DNA of 5,527 nt from a virus. Positions within the stretch are counted from its first letter, which is position 1; every line of letters starts with the position of its first letter. Location: positions 1 through 5,527 of the IMG/VR virus record IMGVR_UViG_3300045988_000440. The stretch is one strand, 5' to 3'. Below, one piece after another: positions 1 to 5,527 of the stretch. A program made the translations under genes and the position numbers. The notes beneath the pieces were generated by a model, which worked only from the letters and a program-made list of their open reading frames with translations, was not told the origin of the DNA and did no database searches.

Positions 1-33
1 TTGTGCAACTTTTTGTGGAAAACCTGTTGAAAG
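1..33. repeat. Terminal direct repeat: bases 1-33 are identical to bases 5495-5527. This is the circular-permutation overlap of a 5494-nt circular genome.
   Basis: The string ttgtgcaactttttgtggaaaacctgttgaaag occurs at 1-33 and again at 5495-5527, which is the last 33 nt of the window. Gene content is a full microvirus complement with no host flanks. Confidence 0.9.
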
Positions 34-51
34 TGTTGAAAGTGTTGAAAA
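25..51. repeat. Three tandem 9-bp repeats, tgttgaaag / tgttgaaag / tgttgaaaa. They belong to a larger family of GTTGAAA(G) iteron-like motifs in the junction-spanning intergenic region.
   Basis: Copies were read directly at 25-33, 34-42 and 43-51. Related copies lie at 5380-5386, 5455-5461, 5463-5469 and 5521-5527. Confidence 0.8.
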
Positions 52-60
52 CTGTAATTA

Positions 61-135
61 AAGGCAGTCCGGCGAGCGAAACCGGAAAGTTACGTCATGC
101 TCTTCGTACGGCGCACCGCGCCTAGCGCATGGCCT
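61..135. other. GC-rich island inside an A/T-rich intergenic region, with two short perfect hairpins (ccgg-cgagcgaaa-ccgg at 69-85; ggcgc-acc-gcgcc at 110-122). It may be a structured RNA or DNA element involved in ori, packaging or regulation.
   Basis: The stretch aaggcagtccggcgagcgaaaccggaaagttacgtcatgctcttcgtacggcgcaccgcgcctagcgcatggcc is markedly more GC-rich than the flanks. The inverted repeats were read by eye. No ORF with a start codon and RBS is present. Confidence 0.4.
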
Positions 136-159
136 TCTAGAATAAATTGCAAAAAACTA

Positions 160-187
160 TTGACAAATCCCAAAAGTGTGGTATAAT
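160..187 (+). promoter_or_regulatory. Near-consensus sigma70-type promoter: -35 TTGACA (160-165), a 16-nt spacer, an extended -10 TGgTATAAT (179-187), and a predicted transcription start near 194-196.
   Basis: Read directly as ttgacaaatcccaaaagtgtggtataat. Both hexamers match consensus perfectly and a TGn extended -10 is present. The element sits immediately upstream of the first small gene. Confidence 0.75.
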
Positions 188-214
188 ATAATCAAAGAAA
201 GGCAGGTAATAAAA

Positions 215-400
215 ATGAGAAAACCTAGACTGAACGAAAACACCATAGCAAAACTCGAAATCTACGGACAAGCAAAAAGCGGCAAAAACTACTACGAACT
301 AATAGACTACATTGATGAAGCCGGACACTGTTACACAAAGCTTGAATGGACGGACTTAAAAACTGGAGACATTCAAACATTCGACTGGAAAGAGCAGTAA
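215..400 (+). CDS. Hypothetical small protein, 61 aa (MRKPRLNENTIAKLEIYGQAKSGKNYYELIDYIDEAGHCYTKLEWTDLKTGDIQTFDWKEQ). It is the first gene of the A/T-rich accessory cassette.
   Basis: The ORF-track entry 176..400 begins at a GTG that overlaps the -10 box. The first ATG is at 215 and is preceded by the RBS gaaagg at 198-203 with an 11-nt spacer. The ORF ends at TAA 398-400. I recognise no family. Confidence 0.55.
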   Translation: MRKPRLNENTIAKLEIYGQAKSGKNYYELIDYIDEAGHCYTKLEWTDLKTGDIQTFDWKEQ

Positions 401-415
401 AGAAAGGAACATAAA

Positions 416-586
416 ATGCTATACAACGTAAGACTCCACAACTTCAAAGGATACTACAACGACACATATATGGTTGAGGCAGATGACCCGGTACAGGCAA
501 GAGGAGTAGCAATCATGAGACTGGTAGAAGAAACCGGAACCGGACTCGACCAGTGGGAAATCATAGACGTAGAAAAGAGGGCTTGA
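416..586 (+). CDS. Hypothetical small protein, 56 aa (MLYNVRLHNFKGYYNDTYMVEADDPVQARGVAIMRLVEETGTGLDQWEIIDVEKRA). It is below the cut-off of the ORF track.
   Basis: ATG at 416-418 is preceded by aaagaaaggaac (RBS aagga, 8-nt spacing). It follows directly after the stop of the upstream ORF. Its own stop, TGA 584-586, lies in the loop of the downstream terminator hairpin. It has the same codon and A/T bias as its neighbours. Confidence 0.5.
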   Translation: MLYNVRLHNFKGYYNDTYMVEADDPVQARGVAIMRLVEETGTGLDQWEIIDVEKRA

Positions 587-602
587 CAAGCCCTCTTTTT
601 TT
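576..602 (+). terminator. Rho-independent terminator: an 8-9 bp GC-rich stem (agagggctt / aagccctct), a tgaca loop and a 7-T tract.
   Basis: Read as agagggcttgacaagccctcttttttt. The stem arms are perfect reverse complements and the U-run follows immediately. It closes the two-gene unit driven by the promoter at 160-187. Confidence 0.75.
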
Positions 603-610
603 AGTACAAT
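583..610 (+). promoter_or_regulatory. Second near-consensus promoter embedded in the terminator: -35 TTGACA (583-588, which is the hairpin loop and right arm), a 16-nt spacer, and -10 TACAAT (605-610).
   Basis: Read as ttgacaagccctctttttttagtacaat. The hexamers match at 6/6 and 5/6 with consensus spacing. It is followed by the RBS gagggggg (619-626) and the ATG at 632. Confidence 0.55.
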
Positions 611-631
611 AAAAGCAGAGGGGGGACAAAA

Positions 632-838
632 ATGTACGATAGAGCATATTATGAACTGTATAAAGGATACAGAGGACCGGAAACACCGAACGAATGTGAA
701 TATTTCATCCGGAAACTTTACAGACAGCTCAAAAGAGCGTATACTGTAGAGGAGGCGAAAGCCATCATCGAAGAAATCTACAAATACAAAAACCAAAAGG
801 CAGAAATGGAGGTGAAACAGTGGCAATCATCAGTGTGA
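632..838 (+). CDS. Hypothetical small protein, 68 aa, rich in Tyr, Lys and Glu (MYDRAYYELYKGYRGPETPNECEYFIRKLYRQLKRAYTVEEAKAIIEEIYKYKNQKAEMEVKQWQSSV).
   Basis: ORF-track ORF with a strong RBS, agaggggggacaaaaATG. It is A/T-rich like the upstream cassette genes. I recognise no family. Confidence 0.55.
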   Translation: MYDRAYYELYKGYRGPETPNECEYFIRKLYRQLKRAYTVEEAKAIIEEIYKYKNQKAEMEVKQWQSSV

Positions 839-931
839 AGAGTATCGAGAAAGCCATCAAAATCATGATGGACATTCTCGAAAAACTGGACGAAATTTAT
901 CACGCGCTGCACGACAAGGAGGATGACAGCA

Positions 932-1051
932 ATGGCAAAACGCACGAAGATGACCAGCAGTAAAGACAAAAAAATCTTTACCCAGACGGCAAAAAAGACC
1001 AAGGCCGTCAACGTCAGTCCGAAGAACATGAGAGGAGGCACCAGACTGTAA
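932..1051 (+). CDS. Small, highly basic DNA-binding protein, 39 aa (MAKRTKMTSSKDKKIFTQTAKKTKAVNVSPKNMRGGTRL). It is the likely analogue of phiX174 protein J / gokushovirus VP8 (ORF8) and is not in the ORF track.
   Basis: ATG at 932 is preceded by AAGGAGG (916-922) with 9-nt spacing. The protein has 12 Lys/Arg and 1 Asp in 39 residues. The stop TAA (1049-1051) overlaps the next start as TAATG. The size and charge are those of microvirus DNA-condensing proteins. An alternative in-frame ATG at 923 sits too close to the SD to be favoured. Confidence 0.6.
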   Translation: MAKRTKMTSSKDKKIFTQTAKKTKAVNVSPKNMRGGTRL

Positions 1052-1293
1052 TGCTGAGACATTATTATGCAATCTATGACAAGGTAGCCAAAACCTTCAG
1101 CGGCCTTTTCGAGCAGCAGAACGATGCAGTTGCAAGCAGGCTCTTCGAAAGCCAGCAGAAGAACAAGGACAGCTTTATCAGCGTCAAGCCGGAAGACTTC
1201 CGGCTGCACTACATCTGCACCATGGAGGACGAGACCGGCGAAATCGTCGATAACGTCAAAACGTGCGTATGTGAGGGCAAACCCAATGAGTAA
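1051..1293 (+). CDS. Hypothetical 80-aa protein in the position occupied by VP5 in VP4-VP5-VP3-VP1-VP2 type gokushoviruses. It is a candidate DNA-packaging / ssDNA-synthesis accessory protein.
   Basis: It is translationally coupled upstream (TAATG) and downstream (ATGAGTAA, an 8-nt overlap with the next gene). An RBS ggagg lies at 1033-1037. The VP5 call rests on position and size only, not on recognised sequence similarity. Confidence 0.5.
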   Translation: MLRHYYAIYDKVAKTFSGLFEQQNDAVASRLFESQQKNKDSFISVKPEDFRLHYICTMEDETGEIVDNVKTCVCEGKPNE

Positions 1294-1762
1294 GTTTCGA
1301 AGCGCGTACAGCGGACAGGTAAGGCATACGAGCCTGACCGGCAACGGCCACGAGCCGGAATATGAGTACAAGGTAACAGACGAAGGCCGGGAACTGGTAA
1401 AAACCGGCGAAACAGACGTCTATGCACTCATTCAGAGTCGTCTGGATGAGACCAAAATCGAGAACATCATCAAACGGGCAACGTATGACCCGACTGCACT
1501 GGGCAGTCAGGACTGGCAGACCAGCGAGACGATGACCGATATTTCGGACGCACCAACAAACTACCACGAGTGGTATGGGCGTATCAAAGACGCGGAAGCC
1601 GAGTTTGACAAACTGCCCATCGAAATCAAAAACAAGTGGGACAATGATGTAGAAAAATACATCATGGCCTATGGAACCCAAGAGTGGGCAGACAAAATGG
1701 GCATAGCAAAACAGAAAGCCGAAGCGGAAAAACCGGCTGAAAAAAGTGAGGTGAAAGAATGA
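1286..1762 (+). CDS. VP3-like internal scaffolding protein candidate, 158 aa (MSKFRSAYSGQ...KSEVKE).
   Basis: The real start is the ATG at 1286, with a gaggg RBS at 1272-1276. The first 54 codons of ORF-track entry 1124..1762 overlap the upstream gene in another frame and are Arg/Ser-rich out-of-frame sequence. The ORF ends in an ATGA overlap with the VP1 start. It is acidic. Its size and its position directly before the major capsid gene fit the gokushovirus VP3. Confidence 0.5.
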   Translation: MSKFRSAYSGQVRHTSLTGNGHEPEYEYKVTDEGRELVKTGETDVYALIQSRLDETKIENIIKRATYDPTALGSQDWQTSETMTDISDAPTNYHEWYGRIKDAEAEFDKLPIEIKNKWDNDVEKYIMAYGTQEWADKMGIAKQKAEAEKPAEKSEVKE

Positions 1763-3408
1763 ACCGCAACAGTGAATACAACTTTGCACAAAATCCGCAG
1801 GTCGGAGTAAGCCGCAGCCGATTCCAGCGCAACAGCGACAACAAAACGACCTTCAACACGGGCGACCTCATCCCAATCTATCTGGATGAGGTGTTGCCGG
1901 GTGATACGCACCAAATCGACGTTGCCTGTGTCATGCGAATGGCGACACCCATCTTTCCTGTGATGGACAATGCCTACTGCGACTTCTACTTTTTCTTCGT
2001 GCCTAACCGCTTGCTCTGGGAACACTGGAAAGAGTTTATGGGCGAGAACAAGGAAACCGCATGGACACCTAAGACGGAATACAGTGTGCCGCAGGTAACG
2101 GCACCAGCAGGCGGATGGGAAGAAGGTACGCTGGCGGACTATCTGGGACTACCTACCAAAGTTGAAGGCATCAGCGTAAGCGCTCTGCCCGGTCGAGCAT
2201 ACGGCCTCATCTACAACGAGTGGTTTCGAAACCAGAACGTCACGCAGCCAACGCTCGTAGAGGTGACAGACGCAACAACGACCGGCAAAAACGATGGCAG
2301 CGGTACCAACGACAGCGCTATCACGCTGGCAAAGCCTCTCAAGGCAGCGAAGGTGTTTGACTACTACACCGGAGCTTTGCCGGAACCGCAGAAAGGCGAG
2401 CCAATCACGATTCCGCTAGGCGGAAACGCACCGATTTACGGTTTTAAGGACATCGCCTTAACCCAAAAAATCGAGGCAAACCCGTCGTCTCTCAACAGGA
2501 TATGGACGAGTAAACCGGGCGGAGATGGGAAAAGTCTCATCTATGAGGACAGCGGGGCGACCAACAAAGGACAGATTGGGTTATACGAATTTGACCAATG
2601 GGGCAACTACAACGGGAGCGGAATCTTGGGTGCAGACCTCAGCAACGTCACGGCAACAACCATCAACCAGCTCCGTCAGGCATTCCAAATTCAGAAGCTG
2701 CTCGAAAAAGATGCACGAGGCGGCACGAGATACCGCGAGGTACTGCGCGAGCACTTCGGGGTTATCTCTCCTGACTCTCGTATGCAGATTCCGGAGTATC
2801 TGGGCGGCTACAGACTGCCTATCAACGTGTCTCAGGTTATCCAGACCTCTTCGAGCGACGACACGAGTCCGCTGGGCAACACAGCGGCGTTGAGTGTAAC
2901 CACCATGAATAAACCTATGTTTACCAAGTCCTTTACTGAGCATGGCTTCATTATGGGTCTGGCAGTCGTCCGTACCGACCAGACCTATCAGCAGGGTATC
3001 GAGCGCATGTGGAGCCGCAAAGGCCGGTATGATTACTACTGGCCGGTACTGGCAAACATCGGCGAACAAGCCATCCTCAACAAAGAAATCTATGCACAGG
3101 GCAACACGAAAGATGAAGAGGCGTTCGGCTACCAAGAGGCATGGGCCGACTACAGGTACAAGCCCAGCAAAGTAACTGGGCTTTTCCGGAGCAACGCAGC
3201 ACAGAGCCTCGATGCATGGCACTATGCACAAGATTACGACGCACTACCCACGCTGAGTACGGCATGGATGGAGCAGACCGACACCGAAATGAAAAGAACA
3301 CTGGCAGTACAGTCTCAGCCGGACTTTATTGCAGACTTCTACTTCATGAACAAAACAACGCGGTGTATGCCGGTGTACAGCATTCCCGGCCTCATCGACC
3401 ATCACTAA
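1759..3408 (+). CDS. Major capsid protein VP1 (Microviridae F-like jelly-roll capsid protein), 549 aa.
   Basis: The N-terminus MNRNSEYNFAQNPQVGVSRSRFQRNSDNKTTFNTGDLIPIYLDEVLPGDTH is the characteristic gokushovirus VP1 start (the S-R-S-R-F...F-N/T-G-D-L-I-P...E-V-L-P-G-D-T motif block). The 549-aa length is typical for VP1. A strong RBS gtgaggtga precedes it. Confidence 0.93.
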   Translation: MNRNSEYNFAQNPQVGVSRSRFQRNSDNKTTFNTGDLIPIYLDEVLPGDTHQIDVACVMRMATPIFPVMDNAYCDFYFFFVPNRLLWEHWKEFMGENKETAWTPKTEYSVPQVTAPAGGWEEGTLADYLGLPTKVEGISVSALPGRAYGLIYNEWFRNQNVTQPTLVEVTDATTTGKNDGSGTNDSAITLAKPLKAAKVFDYYTGALPEPQKGEPITIPLGGNAPIYGFKDIALTQKIEANPSSLNRIWTSKPGGDGKSLIYEDSGATNKGQIGLYEFDQWGNYNGSGILGADLSNVTATTINQLRQAFQIQKLLEKDARGGTRYREVLREHFGVISPDSRMQIPEYLGGYRLPINVSQVIQTSSSDDTSPLGNTAALSVTTMNKPMFTKSFTEHGFIMGLAVVRTDQTYQQGIERMWSRKGRYDYYWPVLANIGEQAILNKEIYAQGNTKDEEAFGYQEAWADYRYKPSKVTGLFRSNAAQSLDAWHYAQDYDALPTLSTAWMEQTDTEMKRTLAVQSQPDFIADFYFMNKTTRCMPVYSIPGLIDHH

Positions 3409-3419
3409 AGAAAGGAGAC

Positions 3420-3444
3420 AGCCGGGGCAAAACCCGGCTATTTT
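3420..3444 (+). terminator. Hairpin (7-bp stem agccggg/cccggct, 6-nt loop) followed by a short T-run, between VP1 and VP2. It is either a partial intrinsic terminator or attenuator, or a structure that brings the upstream SD (aggag, 3413-3417) to within about 12 nt of the VP2 start.
   Basis: Read as agccggggcaaaacccggctatttt. The arms are perfect reverse complements. Only 4 U follow the stem, so this is a weak terminator. VP2 has no SD within 5-12 nt linear distance. Confidence 0.5.
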
Positions 3445-3449
3445 AGTAC

Positions 3450-4256
3450 ATGTCATTTTTAGCAGCACTAGCAACAGGAGCAAAAGTACTAGGTGGCGTA
3501 AGCGGCCTCATAAACGCCGGAACAGGCATCTTCAACGCGCTCAAAGGCACATCCGGCAGCGGAGCAACAAGCTCAAGTGGATACCAGACAAGCCAAGGCG
3601 CAAGCGGCTCAACCATGACCGGCGAAAGCGGCGTAAATGTTGACCAAACAAAAGACCTAGCCAAATACTTCTTAGGACAGAGCCAGCAAGCACAGGGCAT
3701 GCAAAGCCTACAAAACAACAAAAACAGTCTCACGGCACTGGGATTAAACACACTAGGAGCTATCCAGCAGGGCATTTACAATCGTATCCAGCAAGACGCA
3801 GCAATGTCCTACAACTCCGCAGAGGCAGCAGCAAACCGGGCATGGCAGGAGCGTATGAGTAACACAGCATACCAGCGCGGCATGGCCGACATGAAAGCGG
3901 CAGGGCTAAATCCCATACTGGCCTATGCACAAGGCGGGGCAAGCACTCCAACGGGAGCACACGGAACAATCGGGCAGAGCAGCATAAGCGCGCCGAGCGT
4001 TGGAACGCAGTCGGCAAGTATGCCGACGATCTCCGGCACAATGGCAAACTATAGCCGTCAAAAGGCCGAAAGCTGGTCGTGGACGGACTCGCACGGAGAA
4101 CAGCACAGCAGCGGTTACAACAGCTATCAGACGGACTTCCCGGACTTGACCGGATGGCTCAACCAAAACAACAACAGCGGCAAAAGCACAGCAGCCGGAG
4201 GCGGCAAAAAAGACAAACAAGGCTTCGGCGGCAGCAAAGGAGGCAGTTTTAAATGA
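3450..4256 (+). CDS. VP2 DNA pilot / minor capsid protein, 268 aa.
   Basis: The protein is rich in Gly, Ser, Ala and Gln, with the N-terminus [28 protein letters not shown] and a Gly/Lys-rich C-terminal tail. It lies immediately downstream of VP1 and is coupled to VP4 by an ATGA overlap. The composition and location are those of gokushovirus VP2. Confidence 0.8.
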
Positions 4257-5275
4257 GTTGCGCAAGACCACTCATCAGAATATACAATCCGAATGACCAC
4301 AATATAACAGGGTCAATCATGACCTTAGAAACATACCGCGAAAGAGCACACAATCCAACAGCAACGTATGAGAGCCTCGCATACCGCACAGACGTAATGC
4401 TACTGCCATGTGGCAAATGTCTCGGATGCAGACTCAGACAGCGGCAAGACTGGGAGACGCGAATGTTGATGGAGTCAAAAACACTGACGCCGGTATGGTT
4501 TTTGACGCTGACGTGGAATCAAGAGTATGTGCCGGGAATGGTAAGAGAAACAGGCGAAATCATAAGAGGTGCAGTGCATCAGTGGACGACCGGAGACGCA
4601 CCGGAAGTGGTGCAAATTCTCCTACAAGAGGACATGGTACGCTTTAACAAGAGGCTACGCAAAAAGCAAGAAATGTCCGATAAATGGGGCTTAGACCTGA
4701 GATATTTTTATTGCGGCGAATACGGAGAAAACACGGGCAGACCGCATCACCACGGCATTTATTATGGGCTGGAGATACCAGACCTCAAGAAAAAAAGAGG
4801 TAATAATCCGTACTTCGAAAGCGAAGAGATAAACAAGATATGGGGCATGGGTAACGTCATCATCGCAGAAGCATCACCGGAAACAATGGCTTATGTAGCA
4901 GGATATGTAACCAAAAAAACATACGGCAACGACAACAAAAGGTATAGAGAGTTAGGCTTAACACCGCCATACTGTTGTATGTCGAGAAATCCGGGTCTGG
5001 GGTATGACTACTACACGAGCCATAAAGAGCAGATGTACGCAGATGATGGGCTATACTTCAACGGTAAAAAAAGGCCGATACCAAGGTACTTTGATAAAAA
5101 ATACGAAGCAGAAAACCCGAAAAGCCTATGGAGCATAAAAGAAAAACGACAGTCGAGCGCAATAAACGCCTTAAAACTCAAAATGGCCAATACAGGATTG
5201 ACCATAGAGCAGGAAGCAAAAGTAGAGGAAGAGACAAAGAAACAGAGATTTAAAAAAGCCAGAGGGCTATTATAG
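4253..5275 (+). CDS. VP4 replication initiation protein, a rolling-circle HUH endonuclease of the phiX174 gpA superfamily, 340 aa.
   Basis: The N-terminus MSCARPL is followed by a Cys cluster ([22 protein letters not shown]), an HUH motif ([11 protein letters not shown]) and a double-tyrosine active-site motif ([11 protein letters not shown]). An AGGAGG RBS lies 8 nt upstream of the start. Confidence 0.93.
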
Positions 5276-5279
5276 TGTC

Positions 5280-5326
5280 AGTGGGCCTAATCCTATCAAG
5301 AAGAGGATTAGGCCCACTATTTATTT
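5280..5326 (+). terminator. Strong rho-independent terminator after VP4: a perfect 15-bp stem (agtgggcctaatcct / aggattaggcccact), a 9-nt loop, then a T-rich tail (atttatttt).
   Basis: The left arm (5280-5294) and right arm (5304-5318) are exact reverse complements, read directly. The stem begins 5 nt after the VP4 stop codon. An alternative reading is a structured ori or packaging hairpin. Confidence 0.7.
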
Positions 5327-5340
5327 TCGCTTATTATATA

Positions 5341-5527
5341 TAACTTGTTGTAGTCGTAGTAGTAGGGGCTGTGGAAAAGTTGAAAACCATGAATTTTTAT
5401 CCTTGGAACGATATTTTTTGGATTATTTTGATGTTGATACTTTTGTGGATAACTTGTTGAATTGTTGAAAGCGTAGCAATATGCACAAAACCATTTGTGC
5501 AACTTTTTGTGGAAAACCTGTTGAAAG
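5341..5527. repeat. A/T-rich intergenic region containing iteron-like direct repeats. TTTTGTGGAWAACYTGTTGAA occurs at 5441-5461 and at 5506-5526 (the latter identical to 7-27). TGTGGAAAAGTTGAAAAC lies at 5370-5387. Multiple GTTGAAA(G) copies are present, plus a (TAG/TCG)n trinucleotide run at 5350-5365.
   Basis: Read directly. With the copies at 25-51 this gives at least 6 GTTGAAA copies and 3 TGTGGAWAAC copies within about 200 nt across the circular junction. Confidence 0.7.
5482..5501. other. Perfect 8-bp hairpin tgcacaaa-acca-tttgtgca set among the iterons. It is a candidate protein-binding or ori-associated structure.
   Basis: The arms are exact reverse complements with a 4-nt loop. The hairpin sits between the two TTTTGTGGAWAAC repeat copies. 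Confidence 0.4.

Follow-up and report, generated by a model that had tools for sequence, protein, structure and literature searches.

The VP4-to-VP5 interval of a gokushovirus genome

The DNA analysed here, hereafter the window, is a stretch of 5,527 nucleotides covering positions 1 to 5,527 of the IMG/VR virus record IMGVR_UViG_3300045988_000440. It represents an entire gokushovirus genome, circular and 5494 bp long, in which bases 1-33 recur at 5495-5527, and all of its genes are carried on the plus strand. Our analysis concerns the region between VP4 (Rep) and VP5, and above all positions 160-840, which hold three small open reading frames (ORFs), promoter-like sequences and a terminator-like hairpin. 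We propose that this region has three layers, namely a conserved promoter (P1), a slot in which ORF1 and ORF2 are swappable, and a conserved block headed by ORF3, with expression that would proceed by termination and restart; taken as a whole, we regard this reading as likely. The anatomy of the region, its conservation, its mosaic distribution among relatives, its breakpoints, the purifying selection on its genes, the covariation of its hairpin and the predicted folds of its proteins are direct results of the comparisons and models described below. The features on which the argument turns are as follows.

160-187, plus strand: putative promoter P1, TTGACA-16-TATAAT, 12/12 match to consensus, with an extended -10 TG (TGgTATAAT)
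215-400, plus strand: ORF1, 61 amino acids, accessory gene for a small soluble acidic protein
394-573, plus strand: insertion relative to ORF1-only relatives, 180 nt, comprising a new ORF1 stop, a ribosome-binding site and the body of ORF2
416-586, plus strand: ORF2, 56 amino acids, a rarer accessory gene
573-602, plus strand: terminator-like hairpin and T-tract, AAAAGAGGGCTT / GAC / AAGCCCTCTTTT
583-610, plus strand: putative restart promoter P2, TTGACA-16-TACAAT, 11/12, with its -35 in the hairpin loop
632-838, plus strand: ORF3, 68 amino acids, type A of its superfamily, a conserved lineage gene
717-745, plus strand: promoter-like element within ORF3, TTTACA-17-TATACT, 10/12
820-963, plus strand: ORF4, 47 amino acids, GTG start, ribosome-binding site GGAGGTG

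The comparison set consisted of 15 GenBank relatives and 48 IMG/VR loci encoding homologues of ORF1, ORF2 or ORF3, and interval counts refer to the 57 genomes in which both the VP4 stop and the VP5 start could be located. The nearest GenBank relatives are faecal gokushoviruses of human, pig and dog, with 84-92% nucleotide identity across the core, and the VP4-VP5 interval is mostly unannotated in the GenBank records; our literature search found no description of the slot. An earlier sequence-only reading had assumed that VP4 normally runs almost directly into VP5, and had taken the present segment, estimated at about 0.9 kb, for one moron-like module inserted with its own promoters and terminator and marked as foreign by low G+C content (GC). 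The assumption is wrong for this lineage, in which the VP4 stop and the VP5 start stand 833-1671 bp apart in all 57 genomes and the 1269 bp measured in the window is typical. The order after VP4 is about 400 nt of non-coding sequence, 0-2 variable small genes, an ORF3-family gene, ORF4 in genomes with type-A ORF3, a J-like gene and VP5. Positions 160-840 are not a single foreign insert relative to a compact ancestor.

A single inserted module would agree with the two strong promoters and the terminator inside the interval, with the failure of all three ORFs to match a known family, and with base composition, since GC is 41.3% and A is 41.5% in 215-838 against 50.9% and 32.6% in 1286-5275. The small ORFs, present with the sizes first given, are indeed A/T- and A-rich relative to the core, but low GC as a sign of foreign origin was rejected, because the slot lies below the rest of the genome in 57/57 genomes (means 41.1% vs 49.6%) and low GC is thus a feature of the region throughout the lineage and no mark of a recent arrival in the window genome. 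Rep and the non-coding region are also low in GC (VP4 44.8% overall and about 41% at its 3' end; non-coding region 37%), so the low-GC zone extends beyond the three ORFs, and the lowest 624-nt segment within the core falls to 42.1%. With 39.8% in ORF1, 46.2% in ORF2 and 40.1% in the flanking ORF3, the GC of the two accessory genes is no different from that of the surrounding slot, the non-coding region and the 3' end of Rep. A single module is further contradicted by the lineage-wide conservation of P1 and ORF3, by the differing distributions and separate breakpoints of ORF1, ORF2 and ORF3, and by the finding of their homologues on microvirus-sized contigs, nearly all of them 6 kb or less, with no sign of an outside donor. 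We regard this explanation as largely refuted and extremely improbable.

A variable slot between conserved flanks

The variable slot occupies approximately 219-617 of the window, where it holds ORF1 and ORF2. Across the relatives its genes come from at least seven small-protein families (ORF1f, ORF2f, F7, F8, F11, F13 and F18) that are unrelated or barely related to one another, and the 57 genomes show 12 configurations, with no variable gene in 11, one in 30 and two in 16. Within the window's clade 9 genomes carry ORF1, as do 12 in a distant clade (about 50% identity in VP1 and about 45% in Rep), and ORF2 was found in only four genomes, one of them from the distant clade; over the two clades (VP1 about 85% and about 50% identical) ORF1, ORF2 and ORF3/ORF4 assort independently. 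ORF1 and ORF2 are missing from relatives with 85-95% VP1 identity, as expected of the extra DNA of morons. Their description as accessory and moron-like therefore stands, and it fails for ORF3 and P1, which the lineage conserves; in the same way, synteny is variable at ORF1 and ORF2, which change or disappear between near relatives, and not over the segment as a whole.

Segment-wise comparison resolved sharp breakpoints at 201-218, 393/574, 617-631 and 603/961. In relatives with F7/F8, similarity to the window extends through P1 as far as 201-218 and returns at 617-631, shortly ahead of the ORF3 start. Three ORF1-only genomes (L017, L018 and L019) match it to 391-393 and resume at 574, and ORF2 is therefore a 180-nt insertion between the ORF1 'FDW' codons and the hairpin; the C-terminus of ORF1 accordingly reads '...FDWKEQ*' in the window and '...FDWEKYTKEA*' elsewhere, and the L004-type ORF1, ending 'FDWIDAKKEG', looks like a hybrid with the tail of a deleted ORF2. 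In the closest genome overall (L016, VP1 98%), 197-602 is common at 98% identity and 603-961, that is ORF3 together with ORF4, has been exchanged jointly for a type-B gene. The slot of L053 is empty, with P1 running straight into ORF3. Other copies have decayed: in L019 the ORF1 start has changed from ATG to ATA, in L011 the F13 gene has an early stop, and in L005 only the 3' end of ORF1 and the hairpin remain. Together with the empty slot, these decayed copies support the dispensability of the slot genes. In a further genome (L020) the 3' end of ORF1 and the hairpin's left arm are duplicated in tandem, and F8, where present, directly overlaps ORF3. As judged from these alignments, the slot genes are exchanged by recombination at conserved flanks.

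The upstream flank contains P1. The window contains 12 promoter-like sites against 4.7 +/- 2.0 in shuffled sequences, and by our own arithmetic a 12/12 match is expected about 0.002 times at this sequence size. P1 lies at the end of the non-coding region, and about three quarters of the 57 genomes carry a promoter of at least 10/12 some 50 nt upstream of the first slot gene, whichever family that gene belongs to. The two near-consensus promoters first noted, P1 at 12/12 and P2 at 11/12, are both there, but P1 is not the cassette's own promoter, since it is shared with genomes carrying other cassettes (to 201-218) and is present in the empty-slot genome. P1 belongs to the lineage, and P2, which lies downstream of the accessory genes, would serve ORF3, so the private promoter of a moron is not found here.

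The downstream flank begins with ORF3, the first gene of a block that continues through ORF4, the J-like gene, VP5, VP3 and VP1. Type-A ORF3 is found in about 38 genomes with the same core, at identities of up to 97% with a lower bound put at 54% or 62%, and where type B, a gene of 59-75 amino acids, takes its place, the two types are remotely homologous (hhalign probability 98.8%, E = 1e-16). Counting both types, 54 of 57 slots have a called member of the superfamily, in each case immediately before the J-like gene, and ORF3 is not accessory. Its translation looks helical, and its database matches were at chance level only. In KT264799 (L001), the coding sequence labelled 'VP5' at 4049-4255 is an ORF3 homologue, 85% identical, and the true VP5 homologue lies downstream. 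ORF4 overlaps the end of ORF3 and extends beyond 840; it co-occurs with type-A ORF3 and is 68-100% identical in the same genomes. The promoter-like element within ORF3 is present in nearly all type-A genomes, and the codons beneath it are frozen (L29 CTT in 35/35 genomes, Y30 TAC in 35/35, Y37 TAT in 34/35 and T38 ACT in 35/35), while other invariant ORF3 residues show synonymous variation in 0-14 of 35 genomes; a rank test gave p = 0.006 over sites that are not phylogenetically independent. Transcription of ORF4, the J-like gene and VP5 may start internally at this element, and an overlapping reading frame or another constraint could also have caused the frozen codons.

All three ORFs are real coding genes under purifying selection, as the sequence-only reading had supposed, with median pairwise ratios of nonsynonymous to synonymous substitution (dN/dS) of 0.31 for ORF1 (148 pairs), 0.17 for ORF2 (3 pairs only) and 0.26 for ORF3 (588 pairs). 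In a collection of 5.8 billion proteins, homologues formed 50, 12 and 119 clusters at 90% identity for ORF1, ORF2 and ORF3, respectively. In an exhaustive profile search, ORF1 had about 10 genuine small representatives and no more; a 2647-amino-acid fibre-like repeat protein and a leucine-rich repeat protein came up as large hits, and both were rejected because their scores were summed over a short repeated motif. We also rejected a 74-amino-acid form of ORF1 starting at GTG 176 (176-400; e.g. P0001, P0003), whose start lies inside the P1 spacer, in favour of ATG 215, which has a ribosome-binding site; the extended form in databases is very likely a gene-calling artefact.

The predicted structures of ORF1 and ORF2 are confident (predicted local distance difference test scores of 89 and 96), globular and soluble, with folds unrelated to each other. 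ORF1 is modelled as one helix and a four-stranded beta-meander, for which no fold match was found, and ORF2 as a compact beta-beta-alpha-beta fold resembling eL20, PurS and, less certainly, Gp2, its best fold matches being ribosomal eL20/LX and PurS. We read ORF1 and ORF2 as dispensable, soluble, well-folded small proteins kept by selection. The statement that the ORFs have no recognised family held up: scans of ORF1-4 against Pfam, PHROGs, NCBIfam and PADLOC gave nothing significant, PHROGs returning marginal matches only (best E = 0.005); sequence-profile searches of the PDB with the ORF1, ORF2 and ORF3 families gave nothing below E = 0.3; the three ORFs match none of the gokushovirus core families (VP1-VP5, VP8/J-like); and ORF2 has no T7 Gp2-like sequence match in PDB, Pfam or PHROGs. 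Host takeover, superinfection exclusion, anti-defence and lysis had all been suggested as functions for the segment, and our searches yielded no evidence for any of them. The translations of ORF1, ORF2 and ORF3 contain no hydrophobic or membrane segment, which argues against an E-type lysis protein of the phiX174 kind.

These observations bear on an alternative in which the slot genes are non-homologous versions of one required function, such as a soluble single-gene lysis factor or a host-specific replication helper, with each family adapted to its own host strain. At least one slot gene is kept in 46/57 genomes, the slot lies behind the strongest promoter, and no lysis gene has been identified, a peptidase being found in some relatives only (Roux 2012, PMC3394797; Kirchberger 2020, PMC7062461), all of which a required function would explain. 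It would not readily explain the empty or decayed slots of otherwise intact genomes (L053, L019 and L011), the frequent pairing of unrelated families (ORF1 with ORF2, F7 with F8, F11 with ORF1), the lack of a membrane segment or the unrelated folds of ORF1 and ORF2, and we judge it quite unlikely. On the three-layer reading, the products of ORF1 and ORF2 would most likely bind a host component, in takeover, anti-defence or exclusion. The stronger proposal that the slot is a dedicated, recombination-driven locus for counter-defence or host takeover behind the strongest promoter is tentative, and on present evidence we lean against it. If it were true, previously undescribed small inhibitors of host defence or machinery would be encoded by ORF1, ORF2, F7, F8, F11, F13 and F18; the ribosome or RNA polymerase might be the target of ORF2, given its eL20/Gp2-like fold; the joined terminator and promoter would act as an adaptor for plugging genes in upstream of essential ones; and no accessory 'arms-race' locus would have been described earlier in Microviridae.

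The hairpin, the putative restart promoter and a proposed model of expression

The strong intrinsic terminator of the sequence-only reading corresponds to a real hairpin and T-tract at the end of ORF2. Its stem pairs 573-584 with 588-599 and contains an 8-bp GC-rich core (577-584/588-595), extended to 12 bp, around a loop of 3-4 nt, followed by 7 T (596-602). Folded as DNA it has a free energy of -12.2 kcal/mol (z = -6.6), and 0/200 shuffled sequences were as good. A simple terminator scan missed it because the upstream A-tract pairs with the T-tail, and an Rfam scan of the window gave sub-threshold hits only, terminator-like ones at 572-601 among them. The hairpin overlaps the last four codons of ORF2 and the TGA stop (584-586), and this stop codon is contained in the -35 of P2. 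The same arrangement recurs in every genome in which an ORF1- or ORF2-family gene is last in the slot: these genes finish inside the hairpin, whose left arm and loop contain the codons for the final four residues and the TGA, which falls within the TTGACA of P2.

Of 20 genomes with a gene, intact or as a remnant, from the ORF1 or ORF2 family, 19 retain the hairpin, which always overlaps the stop codon. The stem varies by paired changes (GAGGGC/GCCCTC, GAGGC/GCCTC, GGGGC/GCCCC, GGGGAC/GTCCTC and TAGGC/GCCTA). In a 17-genome alignment four pairs are altered on both sides (18 cells) and 86% of cells are paired, a covariation score reached by 0/500 shuffles, and every slid register scored lower. 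The stem is followed by 7-12 T in most of the 19 hairpin-keeping genomes (5 T in L032), and a terminator-like scan after the F7, F8 and F13 genes found no such element. The hairpin and its T-tract travel with ORF1- and ORF2-family genes, and the cassette thus carries its own predicted terminator, as morons do. A promoter-like TTGACA-16/17-TAxAxT, at 10-11/12, recurs at the hairpin in 11 other genomes.

The hairpin could instead be mainly an element of single-stranded DNA, acting in complementary-strand priming or as a recombination hot spot, with P2 a side effect of the stop codon in the loop. Virions package single-stranded DNA, in which the hairpin would form under DNA parameters, the hairpin sits exactly at recombination junctions, and the TGA in TTGACA is fixed by coding. 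The run of T after the stem, however, is a hallmark of intrinsic terminators that a DNA hairpin does not need, the element accompanies only ORF1- or ORF2-type cassettes where a replication signal should be universal, and the -10-like hexamer stands at the right spacing in those 11 other genomes. We consider the single-stranded-DNA alternative highly unlikely.

Under the three-layer reading, 160-840 would be the front end of the main rightward transcription unit, in which host RNA polymerase would start at P1 on the double-stranded replicative form and produce a short, abundant ORF1-ORF2 message that is mostly halted at the hairpin. The conserved downstream genes would be supplied by P2, by read-through and possibly by the promoter-like element within ORF3, and with the downstream block fed in this way an accessory terminator would be tolerated upstream of it; a terminator-bearing accessory unit could thus sit upstream of essential genes without starving them. 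The promoter and terminator activity, the timing of expression and all protein functions in this scheme are what we infer from the features described above.

Several points weigh against this reading. Promoter and terminator activity is argued from consensus, position and conservation, and the sigma-70/sigma-A promoter type is an assumption whose consensus may not be that of the host. The TTGACA of the loop is partly fixed by coding (TGA is the stop), so its conservation is no proof of P2 function, and some of the seemingly compensatory stem changes are paired one-base length changes in an ungapped alignment. Several of the metagenomic contigs are partial, and treating them as circular may distort some slot maps. 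Free dispensability of the slot may be doubted, given how many genomes keep at least one slot gene. Sequence and fold searches found no functional homology for ORF1, ORF2 or ORF3, and the fold likeness of ORF2 is to a very common small fold that gives no specific functional pointer.

Known systems offer partial parallels. Morons are defined by extra DNA of different GC, with their own promoter and terminator and with expression from the prophage (PMC3594210). Like the morons of Juhala and Hendrix, ORF1 and ORF2 are extra small genes, missing in close relatives, exchanged horizontally and bounded by transcription signals; unlike them, they lie behind an upstream promoter that is the lineage's own and persists even in an empty slot, share the GC of their surroundings and draw on a gene pool apparently confined to gokushoviruses. 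The slot also has a predicted terminator followed by a putative restart promoter in place of a preceding private promoter, and shows no sign of lysogeny or prophage expression for its genes. ORF1 and ORF2 therefore somewhat resemble morons or the accessory hot spots of larger phages, and they are not textbook members of either class.

Phage phiX174 has several promoters and leaky terminators on one strand. The window resembles it in its one-strand genes, several sigma-70-like promoters and hairpins with T-tracts after gene blocks, here after ORF2, VP1 and VP4, and attenuation followed by restart could set expression levels as in phiX174. Unlike phiX174, the window fuses a putative terminator and promoter into a gene-end-coding element that travels with a mobile cassette. 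The defensive hypervariable region of temperate microviruses (Kirchberger 2021, cited in PMC9239249) reportedly lies inside the VP2 pilot protein; it resembles the slot as a variable region linked to phage-phage or phage-host conflict, and differs from it in being inside VP2, whereas the slot consists of separate genes between VP4 and VP5. In contrast to the anti-defence hot spots of double-stranded DNA phages, such as anti-CRISPR loci, or to T7 Gp2, the slot shows no inhibitor homology, no regulator gene and no PADLOC or other functional hit.

The accessory repertoire of Microviridae is described as very limited and as consisting mainly of peptidases and methyltransferases (PMC9239249). The M15 peptidase genes of gut Microviridae (Roux 2012, PMC3394797) are like the slot genes in that a gene has been gained in the same interval (MG945447). 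Bacterial or phage donors are evident for these peptidases and a part in lysis is plausible, whereas no homologue of ORF1-3 lies outside microviruses and no enzymatic fold is predicted for them. In MG945447 (L014) a gene of about 148 amino acids at 1769-2215, labelled 'similar to peptidase', lies in the VP4-to-VP5 interval, and several MG945xxx records likewise hold a 'similar to peptidase' gene there. The interval therefore tolerates the gain of larger acquired genes, and these acquired peptidases probably serve lysis.

The value of the finding is that of a well-defined lead. Among gut phages, microviruses rank with the most abundant, and most of their small ORFs lack annotation; if the three-layer reading is confirmed, about 7% of a 5.5-kb genome would be given over to swappable, selected small genes in a fixed slot, which would provide a defined place to seek host-interaction and anti-defence proteins in single-stranded DNA phages. 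The fusion of terminator, stop codon and restart promoter would be a compact design reusable in synthetic biology, and ORF3, as a near-universal unnamed gene of the lineage, would merit an entry in the core gene list.

Core genes, host and non-coding region

The remaining genes of the window were assigned from Pfam matches (VP5, VP3 and VP4), from PHROG matches (VP2, VP3, VP4, VP5 and the J-like gene) and, for VP1, by comparison with annotated relatives.

923/932-1051, plus strand: J-like basic gene, phrog_10695
1051-1293, plus strand: VP5, PF20577
1286-1762, plus strand: VP3, PF09675
1759-3408, plus strand: VP1, matching VP1 of annotated relatives
3450-4256, plus strand: VP2, PHROG match
4253-5275, plus strand: VP4/Rep, Pfam and PHROG matches

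The host affiliation leans weakly towards Firmicutes/Clostridia over Bacteroidota. The hints are the consensus sigma-70/sigma-A promoters with an extended -10, the T-rich terminators and the strong Shine-Dalgarno sites, the last of which argue against a Bacteroidota host. A distant relative (L064, VP1 47% identical) lies on a 10.7-kb contig binned to a Clostridia metagenome-assembled genome. In L065 (locus 1-3400 of the 16,174-bp ENA contig NODE_869) a gokushovirus of the lineage adjoins genes characteristic of conjugative elements in Firmicutes (DUF4315, CD1107-like and topoisomerase III); the junction reflects either integration or a chimeric assembly, and a second, different slot variant stands at the end of the contig. 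Peptidases of gut gokushoviruses show an affinity to Faecalibacterium (Roux 2012, PMC3394797), and our literature search found nothing specific on the hosts of this lineage. The window encodes no integrase or repressor.

The non-coding region (5276-5494 and 1-159) contains all six copies of GTTGAAA, every one on the plus strand, against 0.85 expected. They lie in 1-52, 5379-5385, 5464-5470 and 5520-5526; the unit TGTTGAAAG recurs three times in tandem at 25-51, and window positions 1-52 are 96-98% identical in gokushoviruses with very different core genes. The repeats could be iterons or a replication or packaging signal. A GC-rich island at 61-137 within this AT-rich region is highly conserved (e.g. 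in L053, L011 and L065); it was rejected as a structured element (z = -0.28). Immediately past the Rep stop codon lies a very strong hairpin of 15 bp (5280-5318, z = -7.9), with an interrupted T-rich tail after it; the hairpin probably terminates Rep transcription, and it could have a role in the single-stranded genome as well. After VP1, at 3420-3439, a weaker terminator is predicted.

Three genomes of the distant clade carry a 35-amino-acid hydrophobic ORF (MIAVGTGATIIAMCSAAFALIAMGIDIIKNWRKSK) between the J-like gene and VP5, at slot-relative positions 1085-1192 in L005, 1142-1249 in L013 and 1301-1408 in L020. It has no counterpart in the window and is, from its sequence, a candidate membrane or lysis protein.

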